This document shows positions 10,239 through 60,518 of a stretch of 64,000 nucleotides of DNA, one piece after another. How positions within the stretch are numbered: the stretch's first letter is position 1; the number at the start of each line of letters is the position of its first letter. The notes beneath the pieces were generated by a model. The model ran no database searches. It saw only the letters and a list, made by a program, of their open reading frames with translations, and was not told where the DNA came from. The position numbers were made by a program, and so were the translations under genes. The DNA is from an uncultured virus (IMG/VR IMGVR_UViG_3300001346_000011) (taxonomy: Duplodnaviria > Heunggongvirae > Uroviricota > Caudoviricetes > Kyanoviridae), in the IMG/VR virus record IMGVR_UViG_3300001346_000011, positions 1 through 64,000 of that record; one strand, 5' to 3'.

Positions 10239-10254
10239 ACAGTTTTCCTCATAC

Positions 10255-10276
10255 ATATTTATCGTCCGATAAATAT
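10255..10276. promoter_or_regulatory. Back-to-back divergent late promoters forming a palindrome
   Basis: ATATTTATCG-TC-CGATAAATAT carries one ATAAATA on each strand, between divergent gp13 and gp14. Confidence 0.75.
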
Positions 10277-10282
10277 ATGTAT

Positions 10283-11440
10283 ATGCCGAGATTAAGTCTT
10301 TATAAACCAGAAAAAGGGAACGACTACACATTCTTAGACAAAACAGTGGTGGAAATGTTCACTGTGGGTGGAACCGATGTATTTGTACACAAATACCTAG
10401 GACCTAAAAATCCTGATGAAGCAGATGCCACTCCAGCAGAGCCTAGATATGATGCTGTCAAAGAAACCAACATACAAGACATGTTGTTCCTTGAAAACAG
10501 AGACAGAAAATACAGTCAAGATGTGTACAGTTTAAGAGGCATATACAATGTGCAAGATATTGATTTTGACATGAGTCAATTTGGACTATTTTTACAGAAT
10601 GACACATTGTTTATGACCATTCCAATCACCAGCAGTGTTAAAACATTGGGTAGAAAAGTTATGCCAGGTGATGTGTTTGAATTACCTCATTTGAAAGATG
10701 AATATGCACTGAATGATTTCAGTGTGGCACTTAAAAGATTTTATGTTGTGGAAGATGTCAGCAGAGCGGCAGAAGGATTTTCACAAACTTGGTATCCACA
10801 CCTATACAGAGTTAAACTGAAACAAATATATGACTCACAAGAATTTAAAGAAATATTAAACAAAGATGCAGGTGCAGGTGATGGTAAGACATTGCGAGAT
10901 GTATTATCTACATACGAACAAGAAATGCAAATCAATAATGCAGTCACTCAACAAGCAGAAGCAGATGCACCTAAGTCAGGATATGATATAGCACATTTTT
11001 ATACACTGCAAGTGGATGATAAAGGAAAACCAGAATTGGTCACAACTGATACATCAACACTAGACACATCTACTCAAAACACATTAGCGGACAGAGTAAA
11101 TCAAACTCCTAGCAAAGAAGGTTATGATGGATATTTGTTAGGTGATGGCATTCCACCCAATGGAGAACAGTTTGGATTTGGTATCAGTTTTCCAGGCACA
11201 TCGGACACAGGAGATTATTTTTTACGTACAGATTTTTTACCAAACAGACTGTTTAGATACAACGGTGGACGTTGGGTAAAAATGGAAGATAATGTACGCA
11301 TGACATTGACTAACACTGATACAAGAAACACACAAAAAGGTACGTTTGTTAACAATACTAAAACTTCAACAATTGCTGGTGAATCAGTTACTGAAAGACA
11401 GAGTTTATCAAAAGCACTAAAACCAAAGGCGGATAATTAA
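10283..11440 (+). CDS. gp14: Neck protein gp14-like (head closure)
   Basis: Start MPRLSLY at 10283; DMLFLENRDRKY, FDMSQFGLFL, GDVFELPHL resemble gp14-type proteins; position between gp13 and gp15. Confidence 0.7.
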   Translation: MPRLSLYKPEKGNDYTFLDKTVVEMFTVGGTDVFVHKYLGPKNPDEADATPAEPRYDAVKETNIQDMLFLENRDRKYSQDVYSLRGIYNVQDIDFDMSQFGLFLQNDTLFMTIPITSSVKTLGRKVMPGDVFELPHLKDEYALNDFSVALKRFYVVEDVSRAAEGFSQTWYPHLYRVKLKQIYDSQEFKEILNKDAGAGDGKTLRDVLSTYEQEMQINNAVTQQAEADAPKSGYDIAHFYTLQVDDKGKPELVTTDTSTLDTSTQNTLADRVNQTPSKEGYDGYLLGDGIPPNGEQFGFGISFPGTSDTGDYFLRTDFLPNRLFRYNGGRWVKMEDNVRMTLTNTDTRNTQKGTFVNNTKTSTIAGESVTERQSLSKALKPKADN

Positions 11441-12894
11441 TGCAATTTTTTTACGACGGACAAATTAGAAGATATATCACACAAATAATTAGATTGATGA
11501 GTAATTTTTCTTACAAAGATGGTGATGGTGGATTGAAAACTATACCTGTTATGTATGGAGATATTTCTAGACAGGTGAGTCACATCATAAGAGACAACTC
11601 AGAAAACAAATTACCGTCTGTTCCAAGAATGGGAATATATGTTACTGCATTAGAAATGGACAGAACACGTTTAGCAGATGCAAGTTTTGTGAGTAAAATT
11701 CATATTAGAGAAAGAGCATTTGACAGCAACAACAATGAATACTTGAACGAACAAGGTAAAAATGTTACTGTTGAAAGATTGATGCCTACTCCTTACACAT
11801 TATCATTGAATGCAGATATTTGGACATCCAACACAGAACAAAAATTGCAAATAATGGAACAGATAATGATGTTGTTTAATCCATCACTTGAGATTCAAAC
11901 CACAGACAATTATGTTGACTGGACCAGTTTGAGTGTTGTTGAATTAGCAAATATTGGTTTTTCATCAAGAACAATTCCACTAGGCACAGAAACAGAAGTT
12001 GATGTTGCAACATTAGGATTTACAACACCTATATACATATCACCACCAACAAAAGTTAAAAAACTAGGAGTGATTACTCATATTATCACAAGTATTTTCA
12101 ACGAAAAAACAGGCAATGTAGATTTGAGTCAAACAATGCCTGAACTTAATGCATATCAAGACGGAAATGATTTTGATATCAAAGCAAGTATCACTACCAA
12201 TGCAGATGGTTCTGTAGACACAAGTGTTGCCACAAGAAAAGACACTGACGCTGTGTTAGGTACAACAGGTATAAATTATGATGTTTACGTTTTAAACAGT
12301 GTTGCTCAAATAATTGAAAAAGGTGTTATAGGCAGTGTGGTTTGGACAGGAAATGTGCAAACTATTCCTAATTATAAAGATGGATTGAGCAAAATTTATC
12401 TAAACAGAGAAGGCATAGATGCTCCTGTGGTAGGTACTGTTGCAGTAAACGAAGCAAATCCATTCCAACTTTTAGTTGAGTGGGACGAAGATACAATCCC
12501 AACTGACACTGTAATTGTTGGACCAGTAACAACAAGTGGTTCTGTAGATTTCATAGTGGATCCTACCACATTCAATCCATCCAATGTAAAACAAAATGGA
12601 AAAAGATTGTTGTTACTTAAATCAATAGGTGATTCCGATAATGAAGATGGAGCAGATGCATGGAAAGGTGACAGCAACATAGATTTAGTTGCAGGTGCAA
12701 ATGACATTATAGAATGGAATGGCACAAATTGGGAAAATATTTTTGATGCAAGTGCTAATCCAAGCACCAATACCAATTTCTCAGAATCATTTATTACCAA
12801 TTTAAATACTGGTGTGCAGTACAAATGGAATGGTACAGAATGGTTATTGTCTTTCGAAGGTGAATATCGTAAAGGCACTTGGAAGATCCAGTAG
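11440..12894 (+). CDS. gp15: Tail terminator / sheath stabiliser gp15-like with C-terminal extension
   Basis: FFYD.QIRRYI.Q....SNF, IPVMYG, VPRM, PTPY.L....DIW..N.EQ.LQI.EQI...FNP. Confidence 0.85.
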   Translation: MQFFYDGQIRRYITQIIRLMSNFSYKDGDGGLKTIPVMYGDISRQVSHIIRDNSENKLPSVPRMGIYVTALEMDRTRLADASFVSKIHIRERAFDSNNNEYLNEQGKNVTVERLMPTPYTLSLNADIWTSNTEQKLQIMEQIMMLFNPSLEIQTTDNYVDWTSLSVVELANIGFSSRTIPLGTETEVDVATLGFTTPIYISPPTKVKKLGVITHIITSIFNEKTGNVDLSQTMPELNAYQDGNDFDIKASITTNADGSVDTSVATRKDTDAVLGTTGINYDVYVLNSVAQIIEKGVIGSVVWTGNVQTIPNYKDGLSKIYLNREGIDAPVVGTVAVNEANPFQLLVEWDEDTIPTDTVIVGPVTTSGSVDFIVDPTTFNPSNVKQNGKRLLLLKSIGDSDNEDGADAWKGDSNIDLVAGANDIIEWNGTNWENIFDASANPSTNTNFSESFITNLNTGVQYKWNGTEWLLSFEGEYRKGTWKIQ

Positions 12895-12910
12895 TCACAT
12901 AATTAATTGT

Positions 12911-13345
12911 ATGAACAGTAAGATTGTAGGGTGTGGAGCACTCTTCTATACACTAGATACAAAAAGATTTTTATTACTACACAGAACTCAAAGCAAACAA
13001 AATAATGTTTGGGGATTGGTTGGTGGTACTACAACTTCAGATAAAAATTTGTGGGAAGGTCTTCAAAGAGAGATTCAAGAAGAAATAGGCACTCAACAAA
13101 TTAAGAAAACTATTCCAATGGAAACGTTTATCAGTAATGATGAAAATTTTTTATACCACACCTATTTGTGTGTGGTAGAAAAAGAATTTATTCCAACACT
13201 AAACACAGAACATGATGGCTATGCTTGGGTTACTTTTGGTAACTGGCCCAAACCATTACACCAAGGATTGCGTAAGACATTCCAAAACAAAACAAACCAA
13301 ATTAAATTAGACACTGTGTTTAAAATGCTTAAATTAATCAAATGA
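12911..13345 (+). CDS. NUDIX hydrolase
   Basis: WGLVGG...REIQEEIG Nudix box (first Glu replaced); LNTEHDGYAW; start MNSKIV at 12911. Confidence 0.85.
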   Translation: MNSKIVGCGALFYTLDTKRFLLLHRTQSKQNNVWGLVGGTTTSDKNLWEGLQREIQEEIGTQQIKKTIPMETFISNDENFLYHTYLCVVEKEFIPTLNTEHDGYAWVTFGNWPKPLHQGLRKTFQNKTNQIKLDTVFKMLKLIK

Positions 13346-14592
13346 AAATAATTGGAGATGTAATGCTGGATGTGTGGGTACAAGGTGATTGTACCAAAGT
13401 ATCACCGGAAGCATCAGCATTGGTATTAAAAGAAAATGACCGCAATTACAACATAGGAGGGGCAGGAAACCTCGCTTTAAACCTATCAAATCTCGGCGTA
13501 GACACGCATCTTTACAGTGCCGTGGGCAACGACGCCCCGGGTCATAGAATACAAGAAATACTGCTTAAAAACAACATCAAAACATTCATAAGCAATGATG
13601 CTGTAACCAGCACTGTGAAAACACGCATGATTGGTGCAGACGGACAACACCTGTTGAGGCTGGATCGTGAAGAACAATACACTCAATCTGAGCCCATGAT
13701 TAATTTGGTAAAAAATTTACAAAAAGATGATGTAATTTTGATCAGCGATTACAACAAAGGAGTAATCAACCAATCGTTGGTTAATGACGTTGTGCATCTT
13801 GTCAAAAGAGTTTATGTGGATCCAAAACAAAATCCTGAATCGTATACAGGTGCATATTTGGTTAAACCCAACATGAAAGAATATGAACAATGGTTTGGAA
13901 AATTTGATTCTAAAACTGCTGATCAATTCAGAATAAAATTTAATTGGGATTGGTTAATTGTGACAGATGGCGGCAACGGTATTCATGTTGTTGGTCAAGA
14001 TGAATATCAACATATCACTGGTGATGCTGTAGAATTAGCAGATGTTAGTGGTGCAGGAGATACTGTGTTGGCAATTATTGTAAAATACGTTGAACAAGGA
14101 TACAGCATGACAGATGCTTGTACGTTGGCATTAAAAGGTGCCAGTAAAGTGGTACAACATCGAGGCGTTACAGTGGTACAGATCAGCGATATAGAAGACA
14201 CAGTGGTTTGGACCAACGGTGTGTTTGATATTTTACATCAAGGACATTTAGAATTATTAAAATTTGCTAAAAGCCATGGAGACAAATTGATTGTTGGAAT
14301 AAATGCAGATGAAAGTGTAAAAAGATTAAAAGGAAATGATAGACCATTGAACAATACATTGATTAGAAAAAAACAATTGATGGAATTGCCTTGGGTAGAT
14401 CAAGTGGTTGTGTTCCATGAAGACACACCTATAGAAGCATTGCAAACAATCAAACCTAATGTGATTGTGAAAGGTGGTGATTACACAGTGGCAACCACAG
14501 TGGGAAATGAGATGGCTGAAGTTGTGATATTTCCAACTGTAGACGGTTTTTCAACCACAAATATTTTAGAGAAAGTTAAAAATGAAAATTGA
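13342..14592 (+). CDS. hldE: Bifunctional heptose-7-phosphate kinase / heptose-1-phosphate adenylyltransferase
   Basis: GDVMLD, SPEA, GGAGN, SDYNKG, VDPK, KPN, DVSGAGDT (PfkB) plus TNGVFDILHQGH, VG.N.D.SVKRLKG..RP, VKGGDY, STT. Confidence 0.93.
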   Translation: MKIIGDVMLDVWVQGDCTKVSPEASALVLKENDRNYNIGGAGNLALNLSNLGVDTHLYSAVGNDAPGHRIQEILLKNNIKTFISNDAVTSTVKTRMIGADGQHLLRLDREEQYTQSEPMINLVKNLQKDDVILISDYNKGVINQSLVNDVVHLVKRVYVDPKQNPESYTGAYLVKPNMKEYEQWFGKFDSKTADQFRIKFNWDWLIVTDGGNGIHVVGQDEYQHITGDAVELADVSGAGDTVLAIIVKYVEQGYSMTDACTLALKGASKVVQHRGVTVVQISDIEDTVVWTNGVFDILHQGHLELLKFAKSHGDKLIVGINADESVKRLKGNDRPLNNTLIRKKQLMELPWVDQVVVFHEDTPIEALQTIKPNVIVKGGDYTVATTVGNEMAEVVIFPTVDGFSTTNILEKVKNEN

Positions 14593-15184
14593 AATAAGAA
14601 ATAATAGAATGTTATGCACAGATGTACTGGCAAAAGAGCACTATGAATATATTTTTAAAACCATGACCAATGATACATTTACTTGGAATTACAATGATCA
14701 CGTGGTTAAGAAATCAGAATTTGATACAGAAGAAAAACATCAATTGCAGTTTGTTCATAAGTTTCACGAAGTCAGTCAAATTTTGACTACACCAGAATAT
14801 TGGCAAATGTTGTTTCCTATATTTGAAGTGCTTCAGCCTCACACCTTTATCAGAGTAAAAGCAAATAATATTCCAAGTAAAGAAAAAATTATCACTCATG
14901 GAATGCATACTGATACTGGAATACCATTGAGTTACACAGCAATCTATTATGTGAACACAAACAATGGTTTTACAGAGTTTGAAGATGACAAAATCGACAG
15001 TGTTGCTAATTCAATGGTTGTGTTTCCTAGTTACATGAAACACACAGGATCTACTTGTACAGATGCTAGGAGCAGAATCAACATAAACATAAATTTCGTT
15101 GCTGATCATAGAAGCGAATTTATAAAACCCATTGTGCCCAATGAAGCACATGATACAATTAAACTTTGGAGAAATCACGAATGA
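14582..15184 (+). CDS. Putative 2OG-Fe(II) oxygenase
   Basis: RVKAN, HTD, TAIYYVNTNNG.T, N..V.FP....H, R.NININF. Confidence 0.85.
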   Translation: MKIEIRNNRMLCTDVLAKEHYEYIFKTMTNDTFTWNYNDHVVKKSEFDTEEKHQLQFVHKFHEVSQILTTPEYWQMLFPIFEVLQPHTFIRVKANNIPSKEKIITHGMHTDTGIPLSYTAIYYVNTNNGFTEFEDDKIDSVANSMVVFPSYMKHTGSTCTDARSRINININFVADHRSEFIKPIVPNEAHDTIKLWRNHE

Positions 15185-15996
15185 AAATTTGCGTAACAGG
15201 AGCGGAAGGATTTATAGGAAAAAATTTGTGTAAGCATTTAAATGATATGAATTATGAAGTGACCATGTTTGAATATGCTTCTAACACTTTTCCTGATCCC
15301 AGCCTGTATGATTGGGTAATTCATCTTGGAGCAATCAGTTCTACAACAGAAAGAAATGTAGAATTAATCATGGATCAGAATTATGAATACAGTATGAAAT
15401 TGTTACAGATGTGTGACACCATGGGAGTAAACTTTCAATATGCCAGTTCTGCTAGTGTGTATGGCAACACAAACAGTTTTGTAGAAAATGGTCCTGTTTA
15501 TCCTCAATCACCATATGCTTGGAGCAAATATTTGTTTGATAGATTCATTCAACAAGCCATGGGAGAATTTAAAATATTAGTACAGGGGTTTAGATATTTT
15601 AATGTGTATGGACAACATGAAGAACACAAAGGTGATCAAGCATCTCCAGTAACTAAATTTTCAAAACAAGCAAAAGAAAGTGGTGTGATCAAGTTATTCG
15701 AAAATAGTGACCAATATCTTAGAGATTTTGTGTGTGTAGATGATGTGTGCAATGTGCAGTGTCAAATGCTACAAAAAGACATCAGTGGTATCTACAATGT
15801 TGGTACAGGTACAGCAACGTCATTTCAATCAGTAGCAGAATCTGTGGCTAAAAAATACAATGCCAAAATAGAAACAATTCCTATGCCAGAAAAATTAAAA
15901 GGGCAATATCAGTCTTACACCTGTGCAGATTTGACAGAATTAAATAAAAATGTTACAATAAATTATAAAACAGTTGAGCAATATCTAAATGATTAA
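15181..15996 (+). CDS. hldD: ADP-L-glycero-D-manno-heptose 6-epimerase
   Basis: TGAEGFIG, HLGAISSTTE, YASSASVYG, YAWSK, FRYFNVYG..E.HKG.QAS, RDFVCVDD, YQSYT.AD; start MKIC at 15181. Confidence 0.92.
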   Translation: MKICVTGAEGFIGKNLCKHLNDMNYEVTMFEYASNTFPDPSLYDWVIHLGAISSTTERNVELIMDQNYEYSMKLLQMCDTMGVNFQYASSASVYGNTNSFVENGPVYPQSPYAWSKYLFDRFIQQAMGEFKILVQGFRYFNVYGQHEEHKGDQASPVTKFSKQAKESGVIKLFENSDQYLRDFVCVDDVCNVQCQMLQKDISGIYNVGTGTATSFQSVAESVAKKYNAKIETIPMPEKLKGQYQSYTCADLTELNKNVTINYKTVEQYLND

Positions 15997-16366
15997 TAAA
16001 GAAGGTAAAGTAGACAAAGGTTGGGGATACGAATTAATTTGGGCTTCCAACGACAAATACTGTGGTAAAATAATGGTGTTTGAAAGAAAAGGTGCTAAAT
16101 TTTCAATGCATTTTCATAAAACCAAAGATGAAACTTGGTTTGTAAATGAGGGTAAATTTTTGTTAAGTTGGATTGATACTCAAACTGCAACGTTACTTAC
16201 AAAAGAACTTAAAGAAGGCGAAACATGGAGAAACTTACCTCTGATGCCACACCAAGTACAATGCTTAACTGATCGAGGTAGCATCACTGAAGTGAGCACT
16301 GCTGACGATCCAGAAGACAATTATAGAATCATTCCTGGCGATTCACAAAAAATAGAAGAAAAATAA
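15989..16366 (+). CDS. Cupin-fold sugar isomerase-like protein
   Basis: KGWG.E.IW, SMHFH..KDETW, PH, EVST....DNYR...GDSQ. Confidence 0.85.
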   Translation: MINKEGKVDKGWGYELIWASNDKYCGKIMVFERKGAKFSMHFHKTKDETWFVNEGKFLLSWIDTQTATLLTKELKEGETWRNLPLMPHQVQCLTDRGSITEVSTADDPEDNYRIIPGDSQKIEEK

Positions 16367-16367
16367 T

Positions 16368-16955
16368 TTATTTTTTTTGATGTATCCAGACGTGATCTGG
16401 GTGTTTCTTATAATCGTTGCCAAAATATTTTTGTACTGCTTTTTTTACTCCTGACAACCAGAAGTCGTGTCCTGTTATAAATCCACCAGATTTAACTTTT
16501 GGTGTCCATTTTTCAATATCTTGCGAACATCCATCAAATCCATGATCAGCATCTAAAAACACAAAATCTAATGAATTATCTTCAATTAATAAAGACGCAT
16601 TTGAAGTCCAATCTTTTATAAATTGAGCTCTTGTTCCAAATTCATTTTGTAACTCTTTTATGAAATTGTAATACAGTGAGTGATCATAACTAAACCCCAT
16701 ATGAGGTTGATCATATGTTCTTTTTCGTTGAGGATCAGTACTTCCATTTGGTTGACTTTCGTACAAATCTACACCAATCAGGGTAAGTTCAGGACAATGA
16801 GATAACAAAAAATAATAAAGTTCGCCGCTTCTAACTCCTAGTTCAGCGCCTTTTTTTAAATTGTGTTTTTTAATTAATTTTTGTAAAACAAAACATCGTT
16901 CAGGTTCTTTGTGTGGGTTTTCTCTTTCCAGTACACGAAGCCTATTATAATTCAT
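16368..16955 (-). CDS. Class I SAM-dependent methyltransferase
   Basis: GAELGV..G, GVD, DFVFLDADH, W.PKVK.GG...GHD; start MNYNRL at 16955. Confidence 0.88.
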   Translation of the reverse strand: MNYNRLRVLERENPHKEPERCFVLQKLIKKHNLKKGAELGVRSGELYYFLLSHCPELTLIGVDLYESQPNGSTDPQRKRTYDQPHMGFSYDHSLYYNFIKELQNEFGTRAQFIKDWTSNASLLIEDNSLDFVFLDADHGFDGCSQDIEKWTPKVKSGGFITGHDFWLSGVKKAVQKYFGNDYKKHPDHVWIHQKK

Positions 16956-16959
16956 CTTA

Positions 16960-17082
16960 TCAGTCTTTGTTAATACATTCCTTACAAACACAGTCTGGAC
17001 AATCTAGACATTCTCCACACGATTTTTTGCAGTGTTGTTCACACCCACACGTCTCGCATATATGTTTGATGAGTTGGAGCAT
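16960..17082 (-). CDS. Small Cys-rich, metallothionein-like protein (40 aa)
   Basis: Not in ORF track. MLQLIKHICETCGCEQHCKKSCGECLDCPDCVCKECINKD; ATG overlaps the upstream stop (TAATG) and the ORF fills the intergenic gap exactly. Confidence 0.75.
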   Translation of the reverse strand: MLQLIKHICETCGCEQHCKKSCGECLDCPDCVCKECINKD

Positions 17083-23000: not shown

Positions 23001-24116
23001 CACTGCATTTGATGAAGTGTTTGTGATCAGTAATATTTCTGATAATTCTACTCTTTCAGGAATTTTAACACTTGAAATTCCGTTGGTTACAAGTGCTGGT
23101 AGATTGTCCAGTCCGTTTGTGATCACATCTGTGATGATTCCAACTAAAGAAGTTACTCTTGCAGTTGCTCCTGACTCTCCTGGTGTACCTAAAATTGTTT
23201 GTTGTGTAACAACTGGTGACTGTCTTGAAGCGTATGCAGTGCCAGGTATTACGTAATTGTTGATGATGTTTCTAATTTCATTTTTAGTTGCTATCTCAGG
23301 TTGTCTATCACCATCTAGTACAGAAACTGTGCCGACCCAGTAAGTTGAAGCATTGTATCTTGATTGCTCATTTCCACCATATCTGATATCTTTTAAAAGA
23401 CCATCAATATTGTACCCCATGTCTCTTTCACAAAGGTAAGAATCATATACAAAATTGGCAAACACATAAGCGGAACTTTGTAATGCTGGTAAATTTAAAA
23501 TACCATTGTCCACAACATTATCAATTACAGCCATGTTTGCCGCGAATCCTGTCTTACCAGCCGGTTCTGCATTTGAACCTGATGTGTTTTGTGACAGTCC
23601 ATCTGTGTTGATACTGCTGTATGCTAAACCTGTAAAGATGTATAAATCTATAATTTGTTTCGCTTTTGTCCAATATGCTAATTCAGGTTCTCCAGCAGAT
23701 GCCAATTGAAGTACTCCGTCAACATAATAAGTTTGCGATTGTTTTCTAATATTTTCATTACCGCCATATCTCATATCAAGATATGCCGCTTGTATAACTG
23801 CTTCTACGTCAGTTTTGATTTGTGTAGCAGTTTTTGTATAACCAGCAAATGGTGAAATGTTTCCAGCAACTTGTACAGCAACCCATGCCGCCACTTCTGC
23901 TTTAACATATTCTCTGTTGTTAAGATATCTTAATGATGAGTTTGGATATAAATCTGCCGCTGTGTCTGTAACAATTTTTGCATCTATAAAAGCGGTGGAT
24001 TCGTCTTTTAACCATTCTTTGTTGGCATTAATTTGAGCCCATGCATTAGGATAAAGATTTCCGCTTTCTGGTATTCCTGGTGTAAATTTGTATGTTTGTA
24101 TACGTTTTTTTGCCAT
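17082..24116 (-). CDS. Giant virion structural / fibre protein (2344 aa)
   Basis: G/T/S/A/V-rich, eight G.T.LGG.TPAND.TITV-type repeats, N-terminal helical repeats; lies in the tail module. Confidence 0.85.
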   Translation of the reverse strand: MAKKRIQTYKFTPGIPESGNLYPNAWAQINANKEWLKDESTAFIDAKIVTDTAADLYPNSSLRYLNNREYVKAEVAAWVAVQVAGNISPFAGYTKTATQIKTDVEAVIQAAYLDMRYGGNENIRKQSQTYYVDGVLQLASAGEPELAYWTKAKQIIDLYIFTGLAYSSINTDGLSQNTSGSNAEPAGKTGFAANMAVIDNVVDNGILNLPALQSSAYVFANFVYDSYLCERDMGYNIDGLLKDIRYGGNEQSRYNASTYWVGTVSVLDGDRQPEIATKNEIRNIINNYVIPGTAYASRQSPVVTQQTILGTPGESGATARVTSLVGIITDVITNGLDNLPALVTNGISSVKIPERVELSEILLITNTSSNAVLYTFNDPAKGATVTYKREYPEDTSNPTAFVDPDFPKAFHGNDTITTIFLNADTSTDDATDQLQIFIEDDEIRTRPYDFGTDAIERLRVAQPESMLDADFEYGLQPTKWQAIATQRGYPSIYEVPGTDFDIQTVTSDASAGTQGIGSSLITVTTIGPHNFEAGQPFTITGFDNSVAGASRAAGSFVVNTVPNSLSFTYYGKAKVGSVNPTTISTNFTQLREGDFYTGAAIGFPSFSIDSNGSSGNFVTSLATLSGATILPYTGVQPEIGAPLTGTGIQTGTQITAVNGSGGALASPTVTGDYVAGATAITVQDSAGIIQNSVIDRGDGFAVTIISVAGNDLTLSAPLTQDLIGDITQYPGLAGTNYTPQGQLGRFDIFRVGGSYSVSLVTNGQVGSGQDYAVGDAIVVSGTDLGGATPANDAIVTVESVDTGGEILTASVTGTAFTGTGTASAVATQLQGNNGTGAQINVTKNAGSYTVALNSPSYTGVGLASYAGSQGAGAIFDIDVDAGVYTATVDTAGTGYIVNDVVRLGGSTFGGTGANDLDIRVTAVGGSGEIQTISVAGTAPNQTVNYTSPVYTTPSAGGVTAAFTVTRTGTVYSAVVTTIGAGYSATDVLTILGTQLGGATTANDATITVDSVDGNGGILTFTVAGTAVNTQTYPNQNTGTNISGTNATFDVAISGTGYTVTLNNAGDDYGVGQTHTIEGTSLGGETPANDVTIVIDTVTGTGASGIATITPTGTAALEGTSGYTVGDQFFVSGTDLGAATPTNDAYVSVSTVNGNGGITALTISGTGTDANVDYTSATWTTSGSGTGAVVDINRTGTVYTATFTNTGASFAAADTITILGTAVGGLTPANDVTITVDTVTAGAIATYTVAGTAVNTQTFTDVNKSARTPSGLTMDVTLSGGSYTLAIANGGSGYGLNQTYKIEGTSVFGASPTNDLTFTIAGINSVVGGQVTSVSAATGTANTGTGNALNVAGSNRAPIGVGAQFSITRTNDTDSSTDYTEVTVVQDGSNYAVGDKVVISGASLGGSTPANDITVRVQSITSFGGVVNNTHSGTAIGGTGISVYSSVTISDPVSQAIPLSATISYSALATMRVNFTTPHGLVPGNAFLVVIQSDDGSNNHILASGPFLATSIPSPTSLTYQVRSPGAITDAGWQGSIYGRPDSFFIHRPFDGGVQLGTGGPAHGAQAIRQSKKYIRYQSGKGCMYTTGALFAPSYDILDLSADGTASGSTITVTTDDVDHNLQVGAIIRLVGIATSGYDGTYTITSITNERTFTVIAQITLGGTTPEFTDQPQVSLYQWNGATVRSGIFDDQNGIFWEYDGQNTNAVQRTATRQLAGTITVTPDSNNVTGVGTRFREQIKAGDRVVIRGMTHVVSGITDNTTMSVTPDYRGVNTSSGVKMCAVVDKKAKQSEFNKDVLDGTGPSGYKWDVSKMQMIGIQFSWYGAGFIDWMTRGQTGNFIFVHRMRNSNVNTEAFMRTGNQPVRYEVTNEGPGAKLFENMDATQTTLTVEDASFFPTTGGTVYIDNEIITFTGITGDTLTGCTRAAQLTNFAAGATRNYSAGAAAAHFRNTGVVLISNTASPIISHWGSAYLTDGNFDEDRGYLFSYSGQGLRLSTIRQTVFLMRLAPSVSNALTGDLGDRDLLNRAQLLLDGIEITTEPVAAGGVQGQLVIQGIINPQNYPIDPADIGWTGLQGTAQGGQPSFAEIAPGGSVNWNGGASITTATADTIAEMTSSSTHWFNLGGNRNYMYFLEAQWEGKGHVVGMRVTSAQFPSNTVVTQISDNGSYYFVRFSNRHTGVSGGDAVNFAFGGDFASTNYLFFDPTSWEASNAVAGTEVDTATTTEFPPGTTVQSVQAKTVFGTTEYYRVDFNQTFNGTIAAASSISFNFGQPPYAQPGETIFSFVAQPGERATLALDKIKALTNTTLGGRGTFPNGPDVLAINVFRTAGTGDVSATVTLRWSEAQA
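19870..21810 (-). repeat. Eight imperfect protein repeats (Y..GD.I.I.GT.LGG.TPAND.T.TV)
   Basis: Copies end in TPANDA, TGANDL, TTANDA, TPANDV, TPTNDA, TPANDV, SPTNDL, TPANDI; a ninth copy lies in the 1716-aa gene near 45250. Confidence 0.85.
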
Positions 24117-24123
24117 GCTTTTT

Positions 24124-25986
24124 TTATACTCCTAATGCTATCGCTAACACTGTGGCTGTGTTATCGACATACTGCTTTTTAGTTACATCGTTAGCATTGG
24201 TTGGGTCACTGGTTACAGTTGCTCCTGTAAATGCCGCCGACGCCGCTGATGTTAATCCTATTGTAGTGTTATTTAACGTTCCTTGCGAAGAATTCAATGT
24301 TGAAAAGGTTCCATTTCTTGGTATTACTGAACCTATTGTAACATTATCGACCACACCTATGTCTGTGGGTCTTACTGTGAGCGTTCCACCTGCTTGTGGG
24401 CTCAATGTTACGTCTGCATTGGGTGTTAAAGTTACTTGTCCACTGGTTGATAAATTTTGTGCATTGATGTTCATGTTGTTGATTGTTCCTAATGTGGCAG
24501 GATTAATTGTAACTGTGCCTGTTCCTGTAGGTTGTAATCTAATTTGTGCATCAACTCCTTCTGCTAGTAAATCACCAGTGTCTAATATTGAACTGAAAAC
24601 ACCTGCTCCAATGATACTTGGTTGATTAACTGTTAGTGTGCCATAAGGATTACCATCTGTATCTCCATAAAACAGTGAATCAGGAGCATCAACTGGAACT
24701 GCATAAGTTAAAGTTCCTGATTGTTTTCCTTGTGCTTCTGCTTCTGTTAATGTTGTCGCAACTGGTATGTCAAGATACGTGCTTGTGGCAATTTGAGAAT
24801 TAATTCTTGTTCTAATACTGTTTTGATATGTTGTAAAATTATTTGCAATTCCAGTGAATGCATACATTCTTACAGCATCATTATCATAAGAATAACTTTC
24901 ACTGCCATCTGCTTCTGTGGTTCCTGAAACTAATTTAATTTCTATTGATGAATCAGCTCTAGCCATTCCGTACACAGTGTCTTCTGCACTGTAAAATTCT
25001 TGTCCAGCAATTGTTCCACCATTGAAAAGATATTGTAAATCGTCTTTACCATTGAACATTAAAACTTTTTTATTTCCCAAAGGTGTAATTGGTGTCCAAT
25101 TTATAATTGTCGATTCATCTTGATTCTGTGCTTCTAGTGAGTAATTGTAAAAACTATGATCAGTTGAAAGATATTGATCAACATTTAATAAACCATTAAA
25201 TGTAATAATATTTTTTATTGATGCATTTTGTGTGTAGTTTGAATATTGTAATGCCAACTGTGCACCATTACCGTAACCTATTATTGTGATGTCTCTGGTA
25301 TCCACATTATCATATAAACTAAAACTGGAAATTATAGAATCAATCAAAGCAATATCATCTGCTTTTGATGTGTTGTATCCTACGTTCCATTCATTGCCAT
25401 AACCTTGTGGAGCAATTAAAATTTTATCTGAAATAAAGTTTACATTTGCAATTCCGTTTGCTTGATCAAAACCTTTGTCGTGTAATGAAATCACAACAGG
25501 TATTTTCTTTTGTGCTAAGTCTGTATCAGTTGTGTCAGGAACTACCACTTGAGCTGTTCTGTTGTAGCCTGACTGTTGTTGTTGCCAAGTCTGAGAAAAA
25601 TTCAAAATTCCTGATGCTAAATCTAATCCTGTAACTGTGTTGGCATGAGATAATCCTTCGTTGTACAAATTACCTGGAACACTTGGAGTTGCAACATCTG
25701 GTTTAAAAATATTGAAAGCAAGACTGGATGTGTCTAATACGAATGTGTATGTTGTTCCTCGTTCAACTGAGATAGTTGGATTGTTACCAACCACTGCTGT
25801 GCCTTTGTTTAAAATTGTAAATGCACCTGCAGTTTCATTGATGTTGAAATCTGGTGAAGGTGGAATAACTGGCGGTGTGTATGTATTCGTAATAGTACGT
25901 ACTGTAACATTTCCGTCAACGTCAACGGTGAATCCGGGTGATTTGTATCCGTAATCTGTTTCGAAAGGTTTAAAAACTACTGCCAT
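24124..25986 (-). CDS. Virion protein with inserted alpha/beta-hydrolase-like domain (620 aa)
   Basis: PVVISLH, LIAPQG...WN, DDIALI, IIGYGNGA, NGKDD esterase pattern; fibre-like C-terminus (TKKQYVD...AIALGV). Confidence 0.8.
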   Translation of the reverse strand: MAVVFKPFETDYGYKSPGFTVDVDGNVTVRTITNTYTPPVIPPSPDFNINETAGAFTILNKGTAVVGNNPTISVERGTTYTFVLDTSSLAFNIFKPDVATPSVPGNLYNEGLSHANTVTGLDLASGILNFSQTWQQQQSGYNRTAQVVVPDTTDTDLAQKKIPVVISLHDKGFDQANGIANVNFISDKILIAPQGYGNEWNVGYNTSKADDIALIDSIISSFSLYDNVDTRDITIIGYGNGAQLALQYSNYTQNASIKNIITFNGLLNVDQYLSTDHSFYNYSLEAQNQDESTIINWTPITPLGNKKVLMFNGKDDLQYLFNGGTIAGQEFYSAEDTVYGMARADSSIEIKLVSGTTEADGSESYSYDNDAVRMYAFTGIANNFTTYQNSIRTRINSQIATSTYLDIPVATTLTEAEAQGKQSGTLTYAVPVDAPDSLFYGDTDGNPYGTLTVNQPSIIGAGVFSSILDTGDLLAEGVDAQIRLQPTGTGTVTINPATLGTINNMNINAQNLSTSGQVTLTPNADVTLSPQAGGTLTVRPTDIGVVDNVTIGSVIPRNGTFSTLNSSQGTLNNTTIGLTSAASAAFTGATVTSDPTNANDVTKKQYVDNTATVLAIALGV

Positions 25987-26005
25987 TGTGCTATATCCAT
26001 ATTTA

Positions 26006-26440
26006 TTATTCTGTTACTTGCGTACCTCCAACCAAAGCATTCAATGTGGCAAAATATGTTGCACCAAAGATAATCTTAGAACCAGTGTATTTTTCTGTTC
26101 CTGATTTATCTTCTGGATTTATCTTAATTCTAACATATGAATTGTTAACTTCACTTGCAATCTTGATTAATTTATTACCTAGATTTGATCTACCATATAT
26201 TGATAGACTGCTTTGATTTGGACTTGCTGATACAAGTACTTTTAAAATTTCTTTATTGTTTGTGTCATAATCTACACTGATTGTGTATTCTGCTGTACTG
26301 AATGTGTTCACATGCCATTGGTCTAAAATCATGCCTTCTTCGACCACAGAATATGGACCGTTGTAAGATAGGTTTAACCCATTCTTCATCAACAGAGTAT
26401 TTCTGTCACCTTTTCCAAAAAATCTTGATACATCAAACAT
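26006..26440 (-). CDS. Hypothetical structural protein (144 aa)
   Basis: Intact ORF with TAAATA motif and AAGGA RBS upstream. Confidence 0.7.
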   Translation of the reverse strand: MFDVSRFFGKGDRNTLLMKNGLNLSYNGPYSVVEEGMILDQWHVNTFSTAEYTISVDYDTNNKEILKVLVSASPNQSSLSIYGRSNLGNKLIKIASEVNNSYVRIKINPEDKSGTEKYTGSKIIFGATYFATLNALVGGTQVTE

Positions 26441-26509
26441 ATAGAATAATCCTTATTATAGTGTATTTACCTAATTTGGAACTATTGTATTACTACTGTA
26501 TTTTGGGTA

Positions 26510-27490
26510 TTACTGCTTGTTTTTACTGTGTTTAAGCATCTTTTCAACAGATCTAATAACATCATCTTCTGCTCGATCATCCATAGCCATGATACCTTCA
26601 TTCAATCTGTCACTCAATTCGTCTGAAGTGATTCTTATGGGAGAATACACTCTATCTTCAGATCCAAGATCAATAATATCGAAATTATCTGAGTCAGGAA
26701 ATGATGTGTTTATGGGATATGTAGAACCTATCAACACCGTAGCAGTTCCATTAAATGCGTATGCAAGGTGTTGTCCAACAGAGTCGCAACCAACAAAATG
26801 ATTGGCTTGTTTAATCACAGCCATCCATATTCTTATGTGTACATTCATTGGTGTTGCCACAGGAGCCGACATGTGATGTTTAAATTCTAGTGGGAATTCA
26901 CTCATCATCATAACTCCATATTTTTTAGATAGTTTTTTTACAATGCTCCAAATATTTTTTAGTTCAATACTTCTGCCAGTGACGTCTGTGATGTCTGGCT
27001 GTTTGCCGTCTTTCATTTGTTTTTCAGTAATGTTTTCAGGCTGAGCACCTCGTCCAAATGGTTGAACCACAACAATTTTGTTTTTGCCTGTTTTTTCCTT
27101 TACTTCAGCAATCATTTTTCTTGCCATTAGTATCTCTTCTTTGCTCAGTCTAATAGTTGGTGCTGGCAAATCTCTAATACCTTTGTCATTGATGGCAATG
27201 TCGTATGCTTGAGCAAGGCTACATTTTTGATTGTAATATTCCCAAATTCTGTATGGCTCAGGACTGATTAATTCTCTATCTTTAAGCAGTTCTTGAAATA
27301 AATTTTTATGCCAACTGTCGTAGGCTCTAAAATACAATTTAGGGTGTCCTTTGAAAGCATCTGTTCCACCTTCGCACACTAGTATTGGATCCTTTTCAGG
27401 ATTTTCTTCAAGATATTTTTCTACTGCTGGGATAGAACTTATCATTCTACCAGCACCACCATTTAAAAATATCGCTGTTTTTTTGCTCAT
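26510..27490 (-). CDS. GT9 / heptosyltransferase-like glycosyltransferase (paralogue 2)
   Basis: N-terminal NGGAGR.I...PA; C-terminal IK.A.HFVGCDS.GQHLAYA, resembling GT9 D(S/T)G..HLA.A. Confidence 0.7.
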   Translation of the reverse strand: MSKKTAIFLNGGAGRMISSIPAVEKYLEENPEKDPILVCEGGTDAFKGHPKLYFRAYDSWHKNLFQELLKDRELISPEPYRIWEYYNQKCSLAQAYDIAINDKGIRDLPAPTIRLSKEEILMARKMIAEVKEKTGKNKIVVVQPFGRGAQPENITEKQMKDGKQPDITDVTGRSIELKNIWSIVKKLSKKYGVMMMSEFPLEFKHHMSAPVATPMNVHIRIWMAVIKQANHFVGCDSVGQHLAYAFNGTATVLIGSTYPINTSFPDSDNFDIIDLGSEDRVYSPIRITSDELSDRLNEGIMAMDDRAEDDVIRSVEKMLKHSKNKQ

Positions 27491-29316
27491 TTGTTTGCTA
27501 CCTTTATTAATTTATTGTATTCAGGCAAAAACAAATATTCTATTTCACTGTGTACTAATGTTCTCACAGCATCTTCTAATGTTTCTACTAATGGCTCTCC
27601 GCCTAAATTAAATGATGTGTTGAAAATTATCGGACATTCTGTTTGCTTATGAAACTCTTTAATCAAGTCATAATACAACGGATTTTGTTCTCTTTTCACA
27701 GATTGTATTCTGCAAGTTCCGTCAACGTGTATGATGCTAGGTATTTTTTCTTCAATTCCTGGCTGACAATTTACTGCATACATCATGTGAGGGGTTTCGT
27801 CCATGCCTCTTAAATCGAACCATTCATGCACGTATTCATGCAATATGGTTCCAGCAAAAGGTCTGAAATATTCTCTATGTTTCACTTTGTTTACATGATC
27901 TTTACCGTTTGGATCTCTTGGATCGTATAATATTGATCTGTTACCCAATGCTCTAGGACCGTTTTCACTGGCTCCTTGGAACACTGAAACAATATTTTTA
28001 TCAGTGATAATTTTTACTACTTCTTCATTGGTTGCATCTGATAATTCTACACCGTCTTGTTCACACACTTTTTCAATTTGATCTGATGTGTATGTTCTTT
28101 TTGGTCCAAGGTATAATGTAGGTTCATCAACTTTCTTTTCTTTTGATTGAGTGAGACTGTAATAAAACAACATCGCCGCACCCATTGCCGTTCCTGCATC
28201 ATTTGATACTGGTTCAGCATAAAAGTTTATGCCATCTTTTCTTAATTGTTCTAGATAATAATAATTAGCAACACAGTTCAATCCGTATCCTCCTGAAAAT
28301 ACAACGTTTTTACAACCACTTAATTTTACTGCTTTGTAAATTAAGTCTAAACATTCTTTTTGTGATTCAGTTTGTACTGCATATGCTAGATCTCTCCTAT
28401 TTTGTAATGTTGTCCAATCGTCTTTGGCATCTGATTGAGGGTTTTCATCAATATAAGGATAAAGTCCACTGTTCACTATGGAAGCATTTGGATATGTTGG
28501 TATAATAAAATTCCTATCTGATAAAGAATAATACCCTTCCTTCTTAAAAAGTTTAGGAACCATGTCATTTGGTTTTCCATAAGGAAATAATCCCATTGTT
28601 TTACCTGCTTCGATTGCCGAGAATCCACAATACTGTGTAACTGCTTCATAAACTTTTACAATACCAGCATGGTCTGTGAACAATGCTTGGTGTGTTTTGC
28701 CTGGCTCGCCTATGGAATCAGAAGCAAAGTCTGGATAAAATGCTCCTGGACTTGCTTCTCCCGTACCATAATGTTTATACAATGCAAAAATATCATTTGG
28801 ATAATCACAACTGAAAATACTTTCAACTTCAAACACTGTGATTTCTCCAGAAATACTGTTTTTAATTGGAATAAAAGTTCCAGCACCGTCAACTATAACT
28901 GCAACTGCTTTGTCAAATCCTGATCTATAAAACGCACATGCGGCATGTAGTTTGTGATGAATGTGTGCTAAATCTATCACCTGAGGATGTTTTGTGTCTT
29001 GCACGTGTCTATCAATTAATCCTAATTTTCTTGCTATCCCTGTGTACACATCGTCACCTGAATAATCAACTCTACCTGTTGATCTATCATCTAAACCTTG
29101 TGTGTGAGCAACAACAAGATAATCAATCTTGTCTGTGTATTTTAATATCTCCACCATGGATGCATACGGCCCACCATCATATTTTCTTCTAGATAAACGT
29201 TCTTCTTCAATTGAAAAAACCACTTCACCGTCTTTTAAAAGACAAACACCTGCGTTGTGTCCTCTGGCTATTGCGGCAATATATCCCGTTTTGTTATATT
29301 TTTCTATATCATCCAT
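27487..29316 (-). CDS. Carbamoyltransferase (NodU/CmcH/TobZ family)
   Basis: EEERLSR.K, HH..HA..AFY.SGF, DGAG, SGG..LNCVAN, GPRALGNRS, VK.RE.FRPFA, HVDGTCRIQ, NTSFNL.GEP. Confidence 0.95.
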   Translation of the reverse strand: MDDIEKYNKTGYIAAIARGHNAGVCLLKDGEVVFSIEEERLSRRKYDGGPYASMVEILKYTDKIDYLVVAHTQGLDDRSTGRVDYSGDDVYTGIARKLGLIDRHVQDTKHPQVIDLAHIHHKLHAACAFYRSGFDKAVAVIVDGAGTFIPIKNSISGEITVFEVESIFSCDYPNDIFALYKHYGTGEASPGAFYPDFASDSIGEPGKTHQALFTDHAGIVKVYEAVTQYCGFSAIEAGKTMGLFPYGKPNDMVPKLFKKEGYYSLSDRNFIIPTYPNASIVNSGLYPYIDENPQSDAKDDWTTLQNRRDLAYAVQTESQKECLDLIYKAVKLSGCKNVVFSGGYGLNCVANYYYLEQLRKDGINFYAEPVSNDAGTAMGAAMLFYYSLTQSKEKKVDEPTLYLGPKRTYTSDQIEKVCEQDGVELSDATNEEVVKIITDKNIVSVFQGASENGPRALGNRSILYDPRDPNGKDHVNKVKHREYFRPFAGTILHEYVHEWFDLRGMDETPHMMYAVNCQPGIEEKIPSIIHVDGTCRIQSVKREQNPLYYDLIKEFHKQTECPIIFNTSFNLGGEPLVETLEDAVRTLVHSEIEYLFLPEYNKLIKVANK

Positions 29317-29318
29317 TG

Positions 29319-30272
29319 TTATTCCTCTATTGGTTCACCATTGACTGCGGCAATTACATAATCTTCTATTTCAGGCGACATTGCCATTATTTTTTCATTT
29401 TTTCTGCTGATTCTTTCATCCATTGTGATTCTAATTGGATCATATTCACGTTCCATTTGTCCTAGATCAATATGATTAAAGTTTTCTGATTTTTTATATG
29501 AAGTATTTTCAGGATATGTTGCACCAAATATCACACTTGATGGTACATCTAAACTGTAAGCAAGGTGCTGTCCTAAAGAATCACACCCTAAAAAATGATC
29601 AGCATGTTTTATAATTGCGGCCCATTGTCTTATTGATACTTTTTCAGGCATTGCTACTTCGTCAGGGAATCCTGCATCTTTAAAGTCTATACCAAACTCA
29701 CTCATCAGCATAACTGCAAAATCTTTTTCCTGTAATTTTTTGATTAAATTTTTTAAATTAAAAAATTCAATACTTCTGTTTGTTTTATCAACAAAAGAGC
29801 CATCAATTTGTTGTATTGCTCTTCCAAAGGGTTGAATCACAACAACTTTTTCTTTTTTTAATTTTTCTTTTACTTCGATTATTGCTTTTTGTCCTGCAAT
29901 TAATTCTTCTTTGTTTAACACTAATGTTGATTTAGGTAATTCTCTAATACCTTTTTTGTTTATCAACATATCGAATGCCTGTGCAATATTACATTTTTGA
30001 TTAAAATAATCATGCACTCTGTATGGTTCAGGACTTACAATATCCATGTTGACTAGTTTTGTGTGGAATAAATTTTTATGATACATGTCATAAGTTTTTG
30101 AATCCAATGTTGGATGTCCTTTTAGGATATCACATTCACCTTCTATCACAATGATAAAATCTGGATCGTTTCCTTCTTCTTGATATTTTTCTAAGGCAGG
30201 TATAGCAGATATAATTCTTCCTATTCCACCATTGAGTAAAAATGCTTTGGGTCTTTTTTGTTGTGTATTCAT
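29319..30272 (-). CDS. GT9 / heptosyltransferase-like glycosyltransferase (paralogue 1)
   Basis: Clear paralogue of 26510..27490 (NGG.GR.IS.IPA.EKY, SPEPYR, QPFGR, RSIE, HF.GCDS.GQHLAY, PIRIT.DE). Confidence 0.7.
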   Translation of the reverse strand: MNTQQKRPKAFLLNGGIGRIISAIPALEKYQEEGNDPDFIIVIEGECDILKGHPTLDSKTYDMYHKNLFHTKLVNMDIVSPEPYRVHDYFNQKCNIAQAFDMLINKKGIRELPKSTLVLNKEELIAGQKAIIEVKEKLKKEKVVVIQPFGRAIQQIDGSFVDKTNRSIEFFNLKNLIKKLQEKDFAVMLMSEFGIDFKDAGFPDEVAMPEKVSIRQWAAIIKHADHFLGCDSLGQHLAYSLDVPSSVIFGATYPENTSYKKSENFNHIDLGQMEREYDPIRITMDERISRKNEKIMAMSPEIEDYVIAAVNGEPIEE

Positions 30273-30990: not shown

Positions 30991-31038
30991 AACTAGAAAT
31001 ATTTATTGCTAGTTAAAGTTGATGACTGTTAAAAGTGA

Positions 31039-32709: not shown

Positions 32710-32736
32710 AATAATATTTATCCTATCTCCTGTGAC

Positions 32737-33753: not shown

Positions 33754-33757
33754 AAAA

Positions 33758-60514: not shown

Positions 60515-60518
60515 ATGA

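Follow-up and report, generated by a model that had tools for sequence, protein, structure and literature searches.

The window analysed here comprises the first 64 kb (64,000 nucleotides) of a 71,575-base virus contig (IMG/VR IMGVR_UViG_3300001346_000011) that is about 21% complete, and it carries two blocks of genes that together encode a heptose supply, a pair of glycosyltransferases (GTs) and a carbamoyltransferase. PHROG matches identified sheath, tubes, neck proteins, baseplate wedges, fibres and a T4-like major capsid protein among the window's proteins. Judged from its sequence, the source is a large T4-like phage, because a relative on a 335,231-base contig has a capsid protein 80% identical to this one and the same gene blocks. 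A first-pass annotation of the window had proposed that these genes build a carbamoylated or methylated heptose glycan on virion proteins, and every gene that it named (hldE, hldD, the cupin, the Nudix, the GT pair, the carbamoyltransferase and the methyltransferase) was recovered where it had been placed. The donor block lies in a plus-strand run ordered gp14 (from 10283), gp15, Nudix, hldE, 2-oxoglutarate (2OG) oxygenase, hldD and cupin, ending at 16366; the run is as tightly packed as described, with all six gene junctions overlapping (by 1, 83, 4, 11, 19 and 8 nt). The transfer block lies about 10 kb away on the minus strand (26510-30272), where two GT9-like paralogues do flank a NodU-family carbamoyltransferase among fibre genes, and the methyltransferase gene does follow the giant fibre gene. 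The features of the locus are:

10283..11440, plus strand, gp14-like neck/virion protein (context; PHROG 11591)
11440..12894, plus strand, gp15 tail sheath stabiliser (context; PF16724)
12812..13345, plus strand, Nudix hydrolase (PF00293)
13342..14592, plus strand, HldE, heptose-7-phosphate kinase and heptose-1-phosphate nucleotidyltransferase (similarity to E. coli, motifs)
14582..15184, plus strand, 2OG-Fe(II) oxygenase-like protein, accessory (HxD/H/R motif)
15166..15996, plus strand, HldD, ADP-heptose 6-epimerase (TIGR02197, motifs)
15989..16366, plus strand, metal-binding cupin, candidate sedoheptulose-7-phosphate isomerase (invariant residues, gene context)
16368..16991, minus strand, Methyltransf_24 S-adenosylmethionine-dependent methyltransferase, accessory (PF13578)
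17082..24116, minus strand, 2344-aa virion structural/fibre protein, possible acceptor (PHROG 5838)
24124..25986, minus strand, 620-aa protein with a weak, below-cut-off esterase-like domain (Pfam/NCBIfam)
26006..26440, minus strand, conserved 144-aa protein (conservation)
26510..27490, minus strand, GT2, GT9-like paralogue with Arg at the catalytic position (52% identical to GT1)
27487..29316, minus strand, NodU/TobZ-family carbamoyltransferase (PF16861, PF02543)
29319..30272, minus strand, GT1, GT9/TibC-fold transferase with R19 at the position of WaaC D13 (PF01075, fold model)
30322..31695, minus strand, two paralogous acidic proteins of 222 and 218 aa (position, conservation)
31738..34720, minus strand, three Cys/Gly-rich paralogues, candidate fibre-tip adhesins/acceptors (composition, context)
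10270..10275, plus strand, TAAATA late-promoter-like motif heading the plus-strand run (upstream of gp14; putative role)

GT1 was examined by sequence and by structure prediction. Its sequence matched PF01075 at 28 bits (cut-off 22) over 55 residues and retrieved nothing from the PDB at an E-value of 10; GT2 had no Pfam match, and a 96-row profile of the GT family found only weak WaaF/WaaC matches in the PDB plus spurious matches to CLK3. The AlphaFold2 model of GT1, built from the 96-sequence alignment, had a mean predicted local distance difference test score of 95.5. Against 48,161 chains its best match was the Veillonella GT9 protein 3tov (Z 23.4, root-mean-square deviation (rmsd) 3.5, 283 residues aligned), together with WaaF (Z 21.4, rmsd 3.7, 270 aligned), TibC (Z 20.1, rmsd 3.4, 270 aligned) and WaaC (Z 19.6, rmsd 3.7, 253 aligned); after the top five the next match, the first other enzyme, followed at Z 11.0. 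A Foldseek search agreed with the GT9/TibC matches. The comparison with WaaC/WaaF and TibC suggested earlier thus returned a GT9/TibC-type GT-B fold for GT1, at Z 19.6-23.4.

The active site of the family departs from that of its structural neighbours. With E. coli WaaC and WaaF added to the alignment, WaaC D13, which we take to be the catalytic base, aligned with R19 of GT1, and this position was Arg in 88, Lys in 4 and Asp in none of the 96 rows. The 96-row alignment was too diverse for scanning loci, and four sub-alignments were used instead. These wider scans gave 261 GT loci, of which 259 had a GT open reading frame (ORF), forming 104 clusters at 70% identity; the D13 position was Arg in 96 of the clusters, Lys in 1, other or unparsed in 7 and never Asp. 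GT1 and GT2 therefore lack the Asp/Glu base of GT9 heptosyltransferases, and the archaeal GT9 proteins that we fetched mostly had Glu or Asp there. WaaC K192, D261 and H266, presumably donor-binding residues, aligned with R166, D231 and H236 (95, 94 and 94 of 96 rows), and these three residues and the family motif EPY were nearly invariant at a mean identity of 25%. The annotation of the pair as ordinary heptosyltransferase-like enzymes thus holds for the fold and fails at the catalytic Asp, which is replaced by Arg across the family.

Compared with the GT9 enzymes WaaC and WaaF (PF01075; PDB 2h1f, 1psw, 3tov), the phage GT shares the fold and the C-terminal D..H motif, but it is 12-15% identical, has Arg for the catalytic Asp and falls on a separate branch (a FastTree tree, with long-branch warnings, set it apart from the 8 cellular GT9 proteins included). 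Its acceptor is probably something other than 3-deoxy-D-manno-oct-2-ulosonate (Kdo)-lipid A. The protein heptosyltransferases TibC and AAH have a four-Cys iron finger and an N-terminal barrel. GT1 matches TibC (PDB 4rap) in fold, and the likeness that we propose is an adhesin target encoded next door; the match begins only at TibC residue 88, however, so the N-terminal part is missing, as is the catalytic Asp, and each phage GT has only 3 Cys, none conserved, and hence no such finger. The pair itself is, by its distribution, a local, lineage-specific duplication: it is duplicated in close relatives and single-copy at or below about 62% identity and in cyanophages. One relative, P0252, is a 558-aa protein in which an N-terminal domain, GT-A-like by eye, is fused to the GT1 family.

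The donor genes resemble known enzymes more closely. Over 414 columns, HldE and the E. coli enzyme share 36.5% identity; the phage protein holds a PfkB kinase and a cytidylyltransferase-like domain, both with catalytic motifs (GDVMLD, SPEA, GAGDTV, HxGH, KGGDY and STT). The HldE families were its best NCBIfam matches by a wide margin, yet every score lay below its equivalog cut-off (311.5 against 521 bits for HldE, 222.7 against 345 for TIGR02198 and 147.1 against 181.5 for TIGR02199). The protein reads G-F-STT, not G-R-STT, and so does not carry the STTR5 motif of nucleoside triphosphate-promiscuous enzymes (PMC11573728); going by sequence, the expected product of the route is ADP-heptose. 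HldD is 44.9% identical to its E. coli counterpart over 267 columns, carries the short-chain dehydrogenase/reductase motifs GxxGxxG and YxxxK, and scored 255 bits with TIGR02197 (cut-off 274.6; next unrelated family 80). The locus thus shares HldE and HldD homologues with catalytic motifs with the bacterial ADP-L-glycero-beta-D-manno-heptose pathway (GmhA, HldE, GmhB, HldD), but differs from it in having a cupin for GmhA, no GmhB on the fragment, and scores below the NCBIfam cut-offs. GmhA and GmhB had been reported missing from the window, and a search of the full contig (71,575 bases, about 21% of the genome) did not find either. In more distant relatives, GmhB or a small haloacid dehalogenase (HAD)-type gene adjoins the cupin.

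This cupin, which had been listed as a member of the run, is the probable filler of the GmhA gap that the first-pass annotation left open. It is 125 aa long, and 15 diverse members all share H41, H43, K46, E48 and H88. In 80 viral cupin loci (70-100% identical, hence not independent), hldE was present in 80, hldD in 79 and GmhA in none. The GmhA model TIGR00441 likewise matched none of 26 phage records, 8 complete cyanophage genomes among them, and did match 8 of 14 controls. Among the 261 GT loci a cupin occurred in 60 and GmhA in 2, both on one contig that has no cupin. In phage Bellamy the cupin sits between HddA-like and HddC-like genes, genes of the other heptose route, which also requires the isomerase. 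Of 53 cupin loci in GTDB, 31 had hldE, 1 had HddA and none had GmhA within the flanks; hldE, hldD and gmhB occurred together in 19 (2 phage contigs and 17 archaeal or candidate phyla radiation (CPR) loci), and in those 17 the cupin occupies the place of GmhA. The best PDB sequence-profile match of the cupin was D-lyxose isomerase (E 5.9e-7), and it shares the YCxK and HxH..KxET motifs and the H-H-E-H metal site with the D-lyxose/D-mannose isomerase cupins (PDB 2y0o, 7nzo), although the phage protein is shorter and the structure search did not favour these isomerases over other cupins. The aldose-ketose stereochemistry of D-lyxose isomerase is that of the GmhA step.

Counting against a GmhA replacement, 21 of the 53 GTDB cupin loci had no heptose gene nearby, and 5 of 20 archaeal/CPR cupin genomes had a GmhA-like gene elsewhere (92-124 bits, cut-off 209), beside HddA in two of the five. 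The fold search did not discriminate between cupins either (CapF first at Z 15.7, 7nzo at Z 13.2, many ties), and the main alternative is that the protein acts as an epimerase, at C3 or otherwise, like CapF. The protein has a cupin fold, not the SIS fold of GmhA and TIGR00441. Taken together, residues and gene context make it likely that the cupin is a sedoheptulose-7-phosphate isomerase acting in GmhA's stead. The hosts bear on this as well: among 151 genomes of the family of a Prochlorococcus genome, a GmhA-like gene occurred in 27, a heptose kinase in only 19, and both in 18 of those 19, and most hosts therefore could not supply the isomerase step. The literature searched held no report of cupin activity on sedoheptulose 7-phosphate. 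In cyanophages, the cupin carries the database name 'cysteine dioxygenase'. The 'phosphoheptose isomerase' label in cyanophages was considered and rejected, as it is attached to 106-114-aa DIDGT proteins with weak HAD-type matches only (mislabelled examples lie at L001:18024-18368 and L002:15930-16250). Woesearchaeota-type GTDB genomes (L171, L183, L190, L199 and others) carry a cupin-hldD-kinase-gmhB-nucleotidyltransferase operon near a GT9 gene with the motif QLWG(I/L)GE; archaea have no lipopolysaccharide (LPS).

Other genes of the two blocks appear peripheral. The 2OG gene (14582-15184) had no Pfam or NCBIfam match; it has the HxD..H..R motif and matched PHROG 274, which also weakly matches another window gene that Pfam confirms as a 2OG enzyme, and it was present in 46 of the 80 cupin loci. 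The Methyltransf_24 gene was present in only 10 of these 80, which rules it out as a core part of the module and weakens the proposal of a methylated glycan. The Nudix hydrolase probably travels with gp15 and stands outside the sugar module: distant loci bearing it had gp15 in 38 of 39 cases and hldE in none. As a stand-in for GmhB it was rejected, since it accompanies gp15 whether or not heptose genes are present and occurs together with GmhB. By locus counts, then, none of these three genes belongs to the core. In relatives (L063, L064, L123-L126) the slot between hldE, hldD and cupin takes variable passengers, including tryptophan halogenases and, judged by eye, PurN-like and class I aldolase-like genes.

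The carbamoyltransferase (27487-29316) matched PF16861 and PF02543 and has the NodU/TobZ metal and catalytic motifs. In a quick tree, 33 of 36 carbamoyltransferases from GT loci, the window's included, formed one branch (Shimodaira-Hasegawa-like approximate likelihood ratio test (SH-aLRT) 99), separate from 16 cellular rows. A search of 401 Pseudomonadota genomes gave no close cellular relative; the best matches were 31-41% identical, nearly all over the C-terminal two thirds. Passages of PMC8005017 and PMC13552734 describe a carbamoyl group on the heptose HepII of Pseudomonas and ascribe it to the putative enzyme WapO. The phage enzyme shares Pfam families and motifs with the NodU/TobZ family, and WapO is likened to it by description, not by sequence; carbamoylation of heptose in Pseudomonas is a precedent by analogy and not evidence.

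We examined the linkage of the two blocks in other phages. In INPHARED, 53 records matched GT1, with coverage of 80% or more in 23. Ranked by carbamoyltransferase match, the top 23 (44.8-62.4% identity, next 40.0%) were these same records, and the cupin was present in 22 of them, the exception being a 4-kb fragment; the 23 are not independent of one another, being repeated isolations of some five phage types together with four fragments from single cells. The genes of P-SSM2 and S-CAM3 run in the order fibre, small genes, Cys-rich proteins, GT and carbamoyltransferase, followed by the heptose genes (nucleotidyltransferase, kinase, small HAD, cupin and epimerase). S-SSM7 has the same single cluster with insertions, and its upstream proteins had no BLAST match to the Cys-rich proteins of the window. 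The proposed check on co-occurrence thus came out in favour of linkage, with heptose genes, GT and carbamoyltransferase in one cluster in all three phages. Of 33 related IMG/VR contigs, 23 had an hldE match (one weak), and on one (L138) the donor genes almost adjoin the GT block. For neighbourhood counts we kept the 75 of the 104 GT clusters with at least 5 kb on both sides and dropped the other 29; carbamoyltransferase occurred in 41, hldE in 21, hldD in 21, cupin in 18, GmhB in 13, a small HAD in 7 and GmhA in none. From this conservation, the best reading is that donor and transfer blocks form one functional module. The module corresponds to the cyanomyovirus cluster T4-GC 302-308 (P-SSM2, S-SSM7, S-CAM1/S-CAM3), with which it shares GT (41-52% identity), carbamoyltransferase (46-62%), cupin (37-39%) and epimerase (39-47%), and from which it differs by its two split blocks, a fused HldE instead of two genes, a duplicated GT and no small HAD.

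Candidate acceptors are encoded beside the transferases. The 2344-aa giant protein is 21% Ser+Thr, and the three Cys/Gly-rich paralogues, which lie beyond the interval described by the first-pass annotation, have 31-32 Cys each. An S-CAM3 homologue of the latter matches PF21722 above cut-off; with their position, their Gly-rich motifs and an ESM Atlas lead, this makes the Cys-rich proteins candidate fibre tips. The 222-aa and 218-aa acidic paralogues possibly act as fibre chaperones, given their position and conservation, and had no PDB match. Kinship to Pam3 gp24/gp25 was considered and stayed unconfirmed, as the Cys-rich and chaperone-like profiles matched no PDB sequence. Scoring as Cys-rich any same-strand ORF with at least 10 Cys per 100 residues within 5 kb of the GT, we found one in 40 of the 75 clusters. 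The controls were 34 ten-kb stretches of the 335-kb contig, of which 2 scored, one being the module itself. For loci without such a neighbour, 61 proteins were scanned, 60 of them selected neighbours and one taken from the 335-kb contig; in three of these loci adhesin fibres of the Gly_rich_2 or GP38 type lay close by. In Aeromonas phage HJ05 the GT directly follows a tail protein whose final 160 residues contain 16 Cys, and in Vibrio phage D505 it directly precedes a tail protein with 41 Cys. Neither has hldE, and there were no Vibrio or Aeromonas phages among the cupin or carbamoyltransferase matches listed. Aeromonas and Vibrio hosts make ADP-heptose. The gene immediately after the GT encodes an Mrp/NUBPL Fe-S carrier ATPase in two viral loci (L326:10905-11687, L496:10930-11715), which may hint at metal clusters in the Cys-rich tail proteins.

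Together, gene content, folds, residues and linkage lead us to favour, with some reserve, a module that heptosylates and carbamoylates virion fibre proteins. The cupin would isomerise host sedoheptulose 7-phosphate to D-glycero-D-manno-heptose 7-phosphate; homology strongly suggests that HldE then phosphorylates the heptose and, after a phosphatase step, adenylylates it, and that HldD epimerises the product to ADP-L-glycero-D-manno-heptose. GT1 and GT2 would transfer the heptose to tail proteins of the virion; the Cys/Gly-rich fibre-tip proteins encoded next to them are the likeliest acceptors, and the transfer may dispense with the usual carboxylate base. The carbamoyltransferase, by analogy to Pseudomonas HepII, may O-carbamoylate the transferred heptose. 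Possibly the base-less GT9 branch attaches the sugar to cysteine sulphur. A wider claim, which we put forward only tentatively, is that of a widespread, unpublished phage system that places carbamoyl-heptose on Cys-rich tail-fibre tips using this GT9 branch and a cupin-type isomerase shared with DPANN archaea.

Several observations weigh against virion heptosylation. The missing catalytic Asp could mean an inactive GT, and the fifth fold match was a non-enzymatic chloroplast NDH subunit (7wff, Z 18.8). GmhB was found neither on the contig nor on five close relatives (fragments, 19-37%). In the 75 clusters the carbamoyltransferase and hldE lay within the flanks in only the 41 and 21 cases given above, and the other 35 clusters had no Cys-rich neighbour. 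Many of the inspected loci of this last kind lie among other glycan enzymes. Six of them, a GT sub-branch set beside ribonucleotide reductase or thyX genes and not beside fibres, comprise three with Pfam-confirmed genes (L293, L309, L323) and three with the same, size-matched layout (L291, L304, L308). The Cys-rich proteins had no PDB match, and only 2 of 23 matched Gly_rich_2, weakly. No hldE match was found on 10 of the 33 related contigs, all fragments, and in two of these the donor block is missing and Nudix-gp15 lies directly against the giant gene. Of 35 cupin-bearing records, 13 had no match to this GT, and donor genes therefore also serve other sugar clusters; five such records that we inspected hold larger sugar clusters with other transferases. 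Nine of 30 orthologous loci lacked the promoter-like motif described below ahead of GT1. Finally, the argument from host LPS given next covers the cyanophage relatives only.

Each of four other functions accounts for part of these data. The enzymes could remodel a host surface glycan (LPS, exopolysaccharide, S-layer or pilin) during infection, for example against superinfection or grazing. Passages of PMC3037559 and PMC12801897 read cyanophage sugar genes in this way, LPS heptosyltransferases are the closest folds, the Pseudomonas LPS core carries a carbamoylated heptose according to a passage of PMC8005017, and genes for GT2/GT25/GT4 enzymes, sulfotransferases and methyltransferases surround many of the distant GT loci. 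However, the LPS of Synechococcus WH8102 and CC9311 contains neither heptose nor Kdo, as reported in passages of PMC4515613, and with a heptose kinase so rare in the sampled host family the cyanophage relatives therefore lack the normal acceptor and donor in most hosts. The GT also stays beside tail genes in unrelated Aeromonas and Vibrio phages, on a branch that stands apart from the 8 cellular GT9 proteins and lacks their acidic catalytic residue, and we consider host remodelling unlikely. That missing residue (Arg or Lys instead of Asp in 92 of 96 rows) would instead suit GT-fold proteins that are dead or merely bind ADP-heptose or glycans, as assembly factors or partners of the fibre tip, with the donor genes and carbamoyltransferase serving other transferases; 7wff is a precedent for a non-enzyme with a GT9 fold, and donor genes do occur without this GT. 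The near-invariance of D231, H236, R166 and EPY, and the linkage of the GT to donor genes and to its own carbamoyltransferase branch, make such a role improbable.

A small carbamoylated heptose-derived molecule (a signal, an anti-defence compound or a nucleotide conjugate) is another conceivable product. The solved carbamoyltransferase relatives TobZ, GdmN and NovN act on small molecules, nucleoside diphosphate-heptoses feed natural products such as septacidin (PMC11573728), and the cluster varies in its accessory oxygenases, halogenases and methyltransferases; but no dedicated scaffold-building enzymes were seen, and the conserved position among fibre genes, with Cys-rich neighbours in 40 of 75 clusters, renders this quite improbable. 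DNA hypermodification, which the first-pass annotation had named as an alternative, would place heptose, carbamoyl or both on 5-hydroxymethylcytosine (5hmC). Both additions to 5hmC are described for phages in passages of published work (heptose, bioRxiv 10.1101/2023.12.21.572611; carbamoyl, PMC8670742), and some distant GT loci lie near nucleotide-metabolism genes. The thymidylate-synthase-like dCMP hydroxymethylase of the carbamoyltransferase system, as set out in a passage of PMC8670742, was not found in the three complete cyanophages P-SSM2, S-CAM3 and S-SSM7, the 335-kb contig or the 261 GT loci, none of which has a ThyA-like gene; the C5 cytosine methyltransferase of the 5mYOX/TET-linked DNA glycosylation (Pyle et al.) was absent from the same three phages and the 335-kb contig. 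Indeed, PF00303 and PF00145 had no match in these four sequences, and the controls matched; a search for TET/JBP dioxygenases is uninformative, as its positive controls themselves gave no match. The published DNA heptosyltransferase resembles T4 beta-GT, according to a passage describing it, and no such protein was among the 50 fold matches listed; GT1 and GT2 have net charges of -8 and 0. On sequence grounds the published DNA routes are unlikely, since none of the three complete cyanophages has the enzymes that they require; modification by another route or via a host methyltransferase is possible, and DNA as the target is overall highly improbable. The virion interpretation of the first-pass annotation is thus upheld in part, by the GT9/TibC-type fold, the gene linkage, the fibre-side placement and the disfavoured DNA routes.

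For these genes the only published label that we found is 'LPS genes'. In passages of Sullivan et al. (2010; PMC3037559), clusters GC 304, 305, 307 and 308 co-occur as LPS genes of unknown function, and these passages name neither a GT nor a virion target. The literature searched, with supplements excluded and subscription papers mostly outside it, gave no description of the module as a virion-modifying system or of a cupin replacing GmhA. Mycobacteriophages encode GTs that decorate virion proteins, with modified C-termini of capsid and tail-tube proteins (Freeman et al. 2023, as cited in PMC12619734); the citing passage mentions no dedicated heptose supply or carbamoylation. The module is real, conserved and unexplained in the searchable literature, and it combines known kinds of component: nucleoside diphosphate-heptose supply, GT9-fold transfer and virion glycosylation. 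If our interpretation is true, part of the cyanophage 'LPS genes' are virion-tailoring genes, which would answer two stated questions, the function of these genes (posed in a passage of PMC3037559) and why viruses encode heptose-making enzymes (PMC11573728). The cultured phages S-CAM1, S-CAM3, S-SSM7 and P-SSM2 carry the module, making it directly testable. If the cupin replaces GmhA, genome surveys keyed on gmhA undercount heptose producers, and the phage database names 'phosphoheptose isomerase' (a HAD phosphatase) and 'cysteine dioxygenase' (the cupin) are wrong.

The promoters had been described as late, and this held for a TAAATA motif and failed for the T4 consensus. Of 26 genes examined, 13 had TAAATA in the 40 nt upstream (background 0.98%); its place ahead of structural genes suggests a late promoter. 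In the plus-strand run it precedes gp14 and Nudix and not hldE or hldD. GT1 is preceded by the variant TAAGTA, and among 30 orthologous loci TAA(A/G)TA stands ahead of GT1 in 21. A single copy of the T4 late promoter TATAAATA occurred in the window, fewer than expected by chance, and a sigma-70 scan of the window gave nothing beyond chance. The genes gp13 (9480-10331, minus strand) and gp14 (10283, plus strand) are divergently oriented, and at 10261 and 10270 TAAATA motifs overlap on the two strands.

The 335-kb jumbo phage contig and a 153-kb copy (L158/L159; G059:C57, C77) sit in a bacterial metagenome-assembled genome (MAG) bin, and further GTDB cupin matches (L177, L186, L209) resemble cyanophage DNA inside MAGs. 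Directly after the major capsid gene of the window lies a HemB-like (porphobilinogen synthase) gene (59714-60622, minus strand; NF006762 131.6 bits, cut-off 297) that has no match on the 335-kb relative. Beyond the window, a 189-aa ORF at contig position 70888-71457 (plus strand) is, by eye, presumably HemD-like (uroporphyrinogen-III synthase), and the two together hint at phage tetrapyrrole genes.

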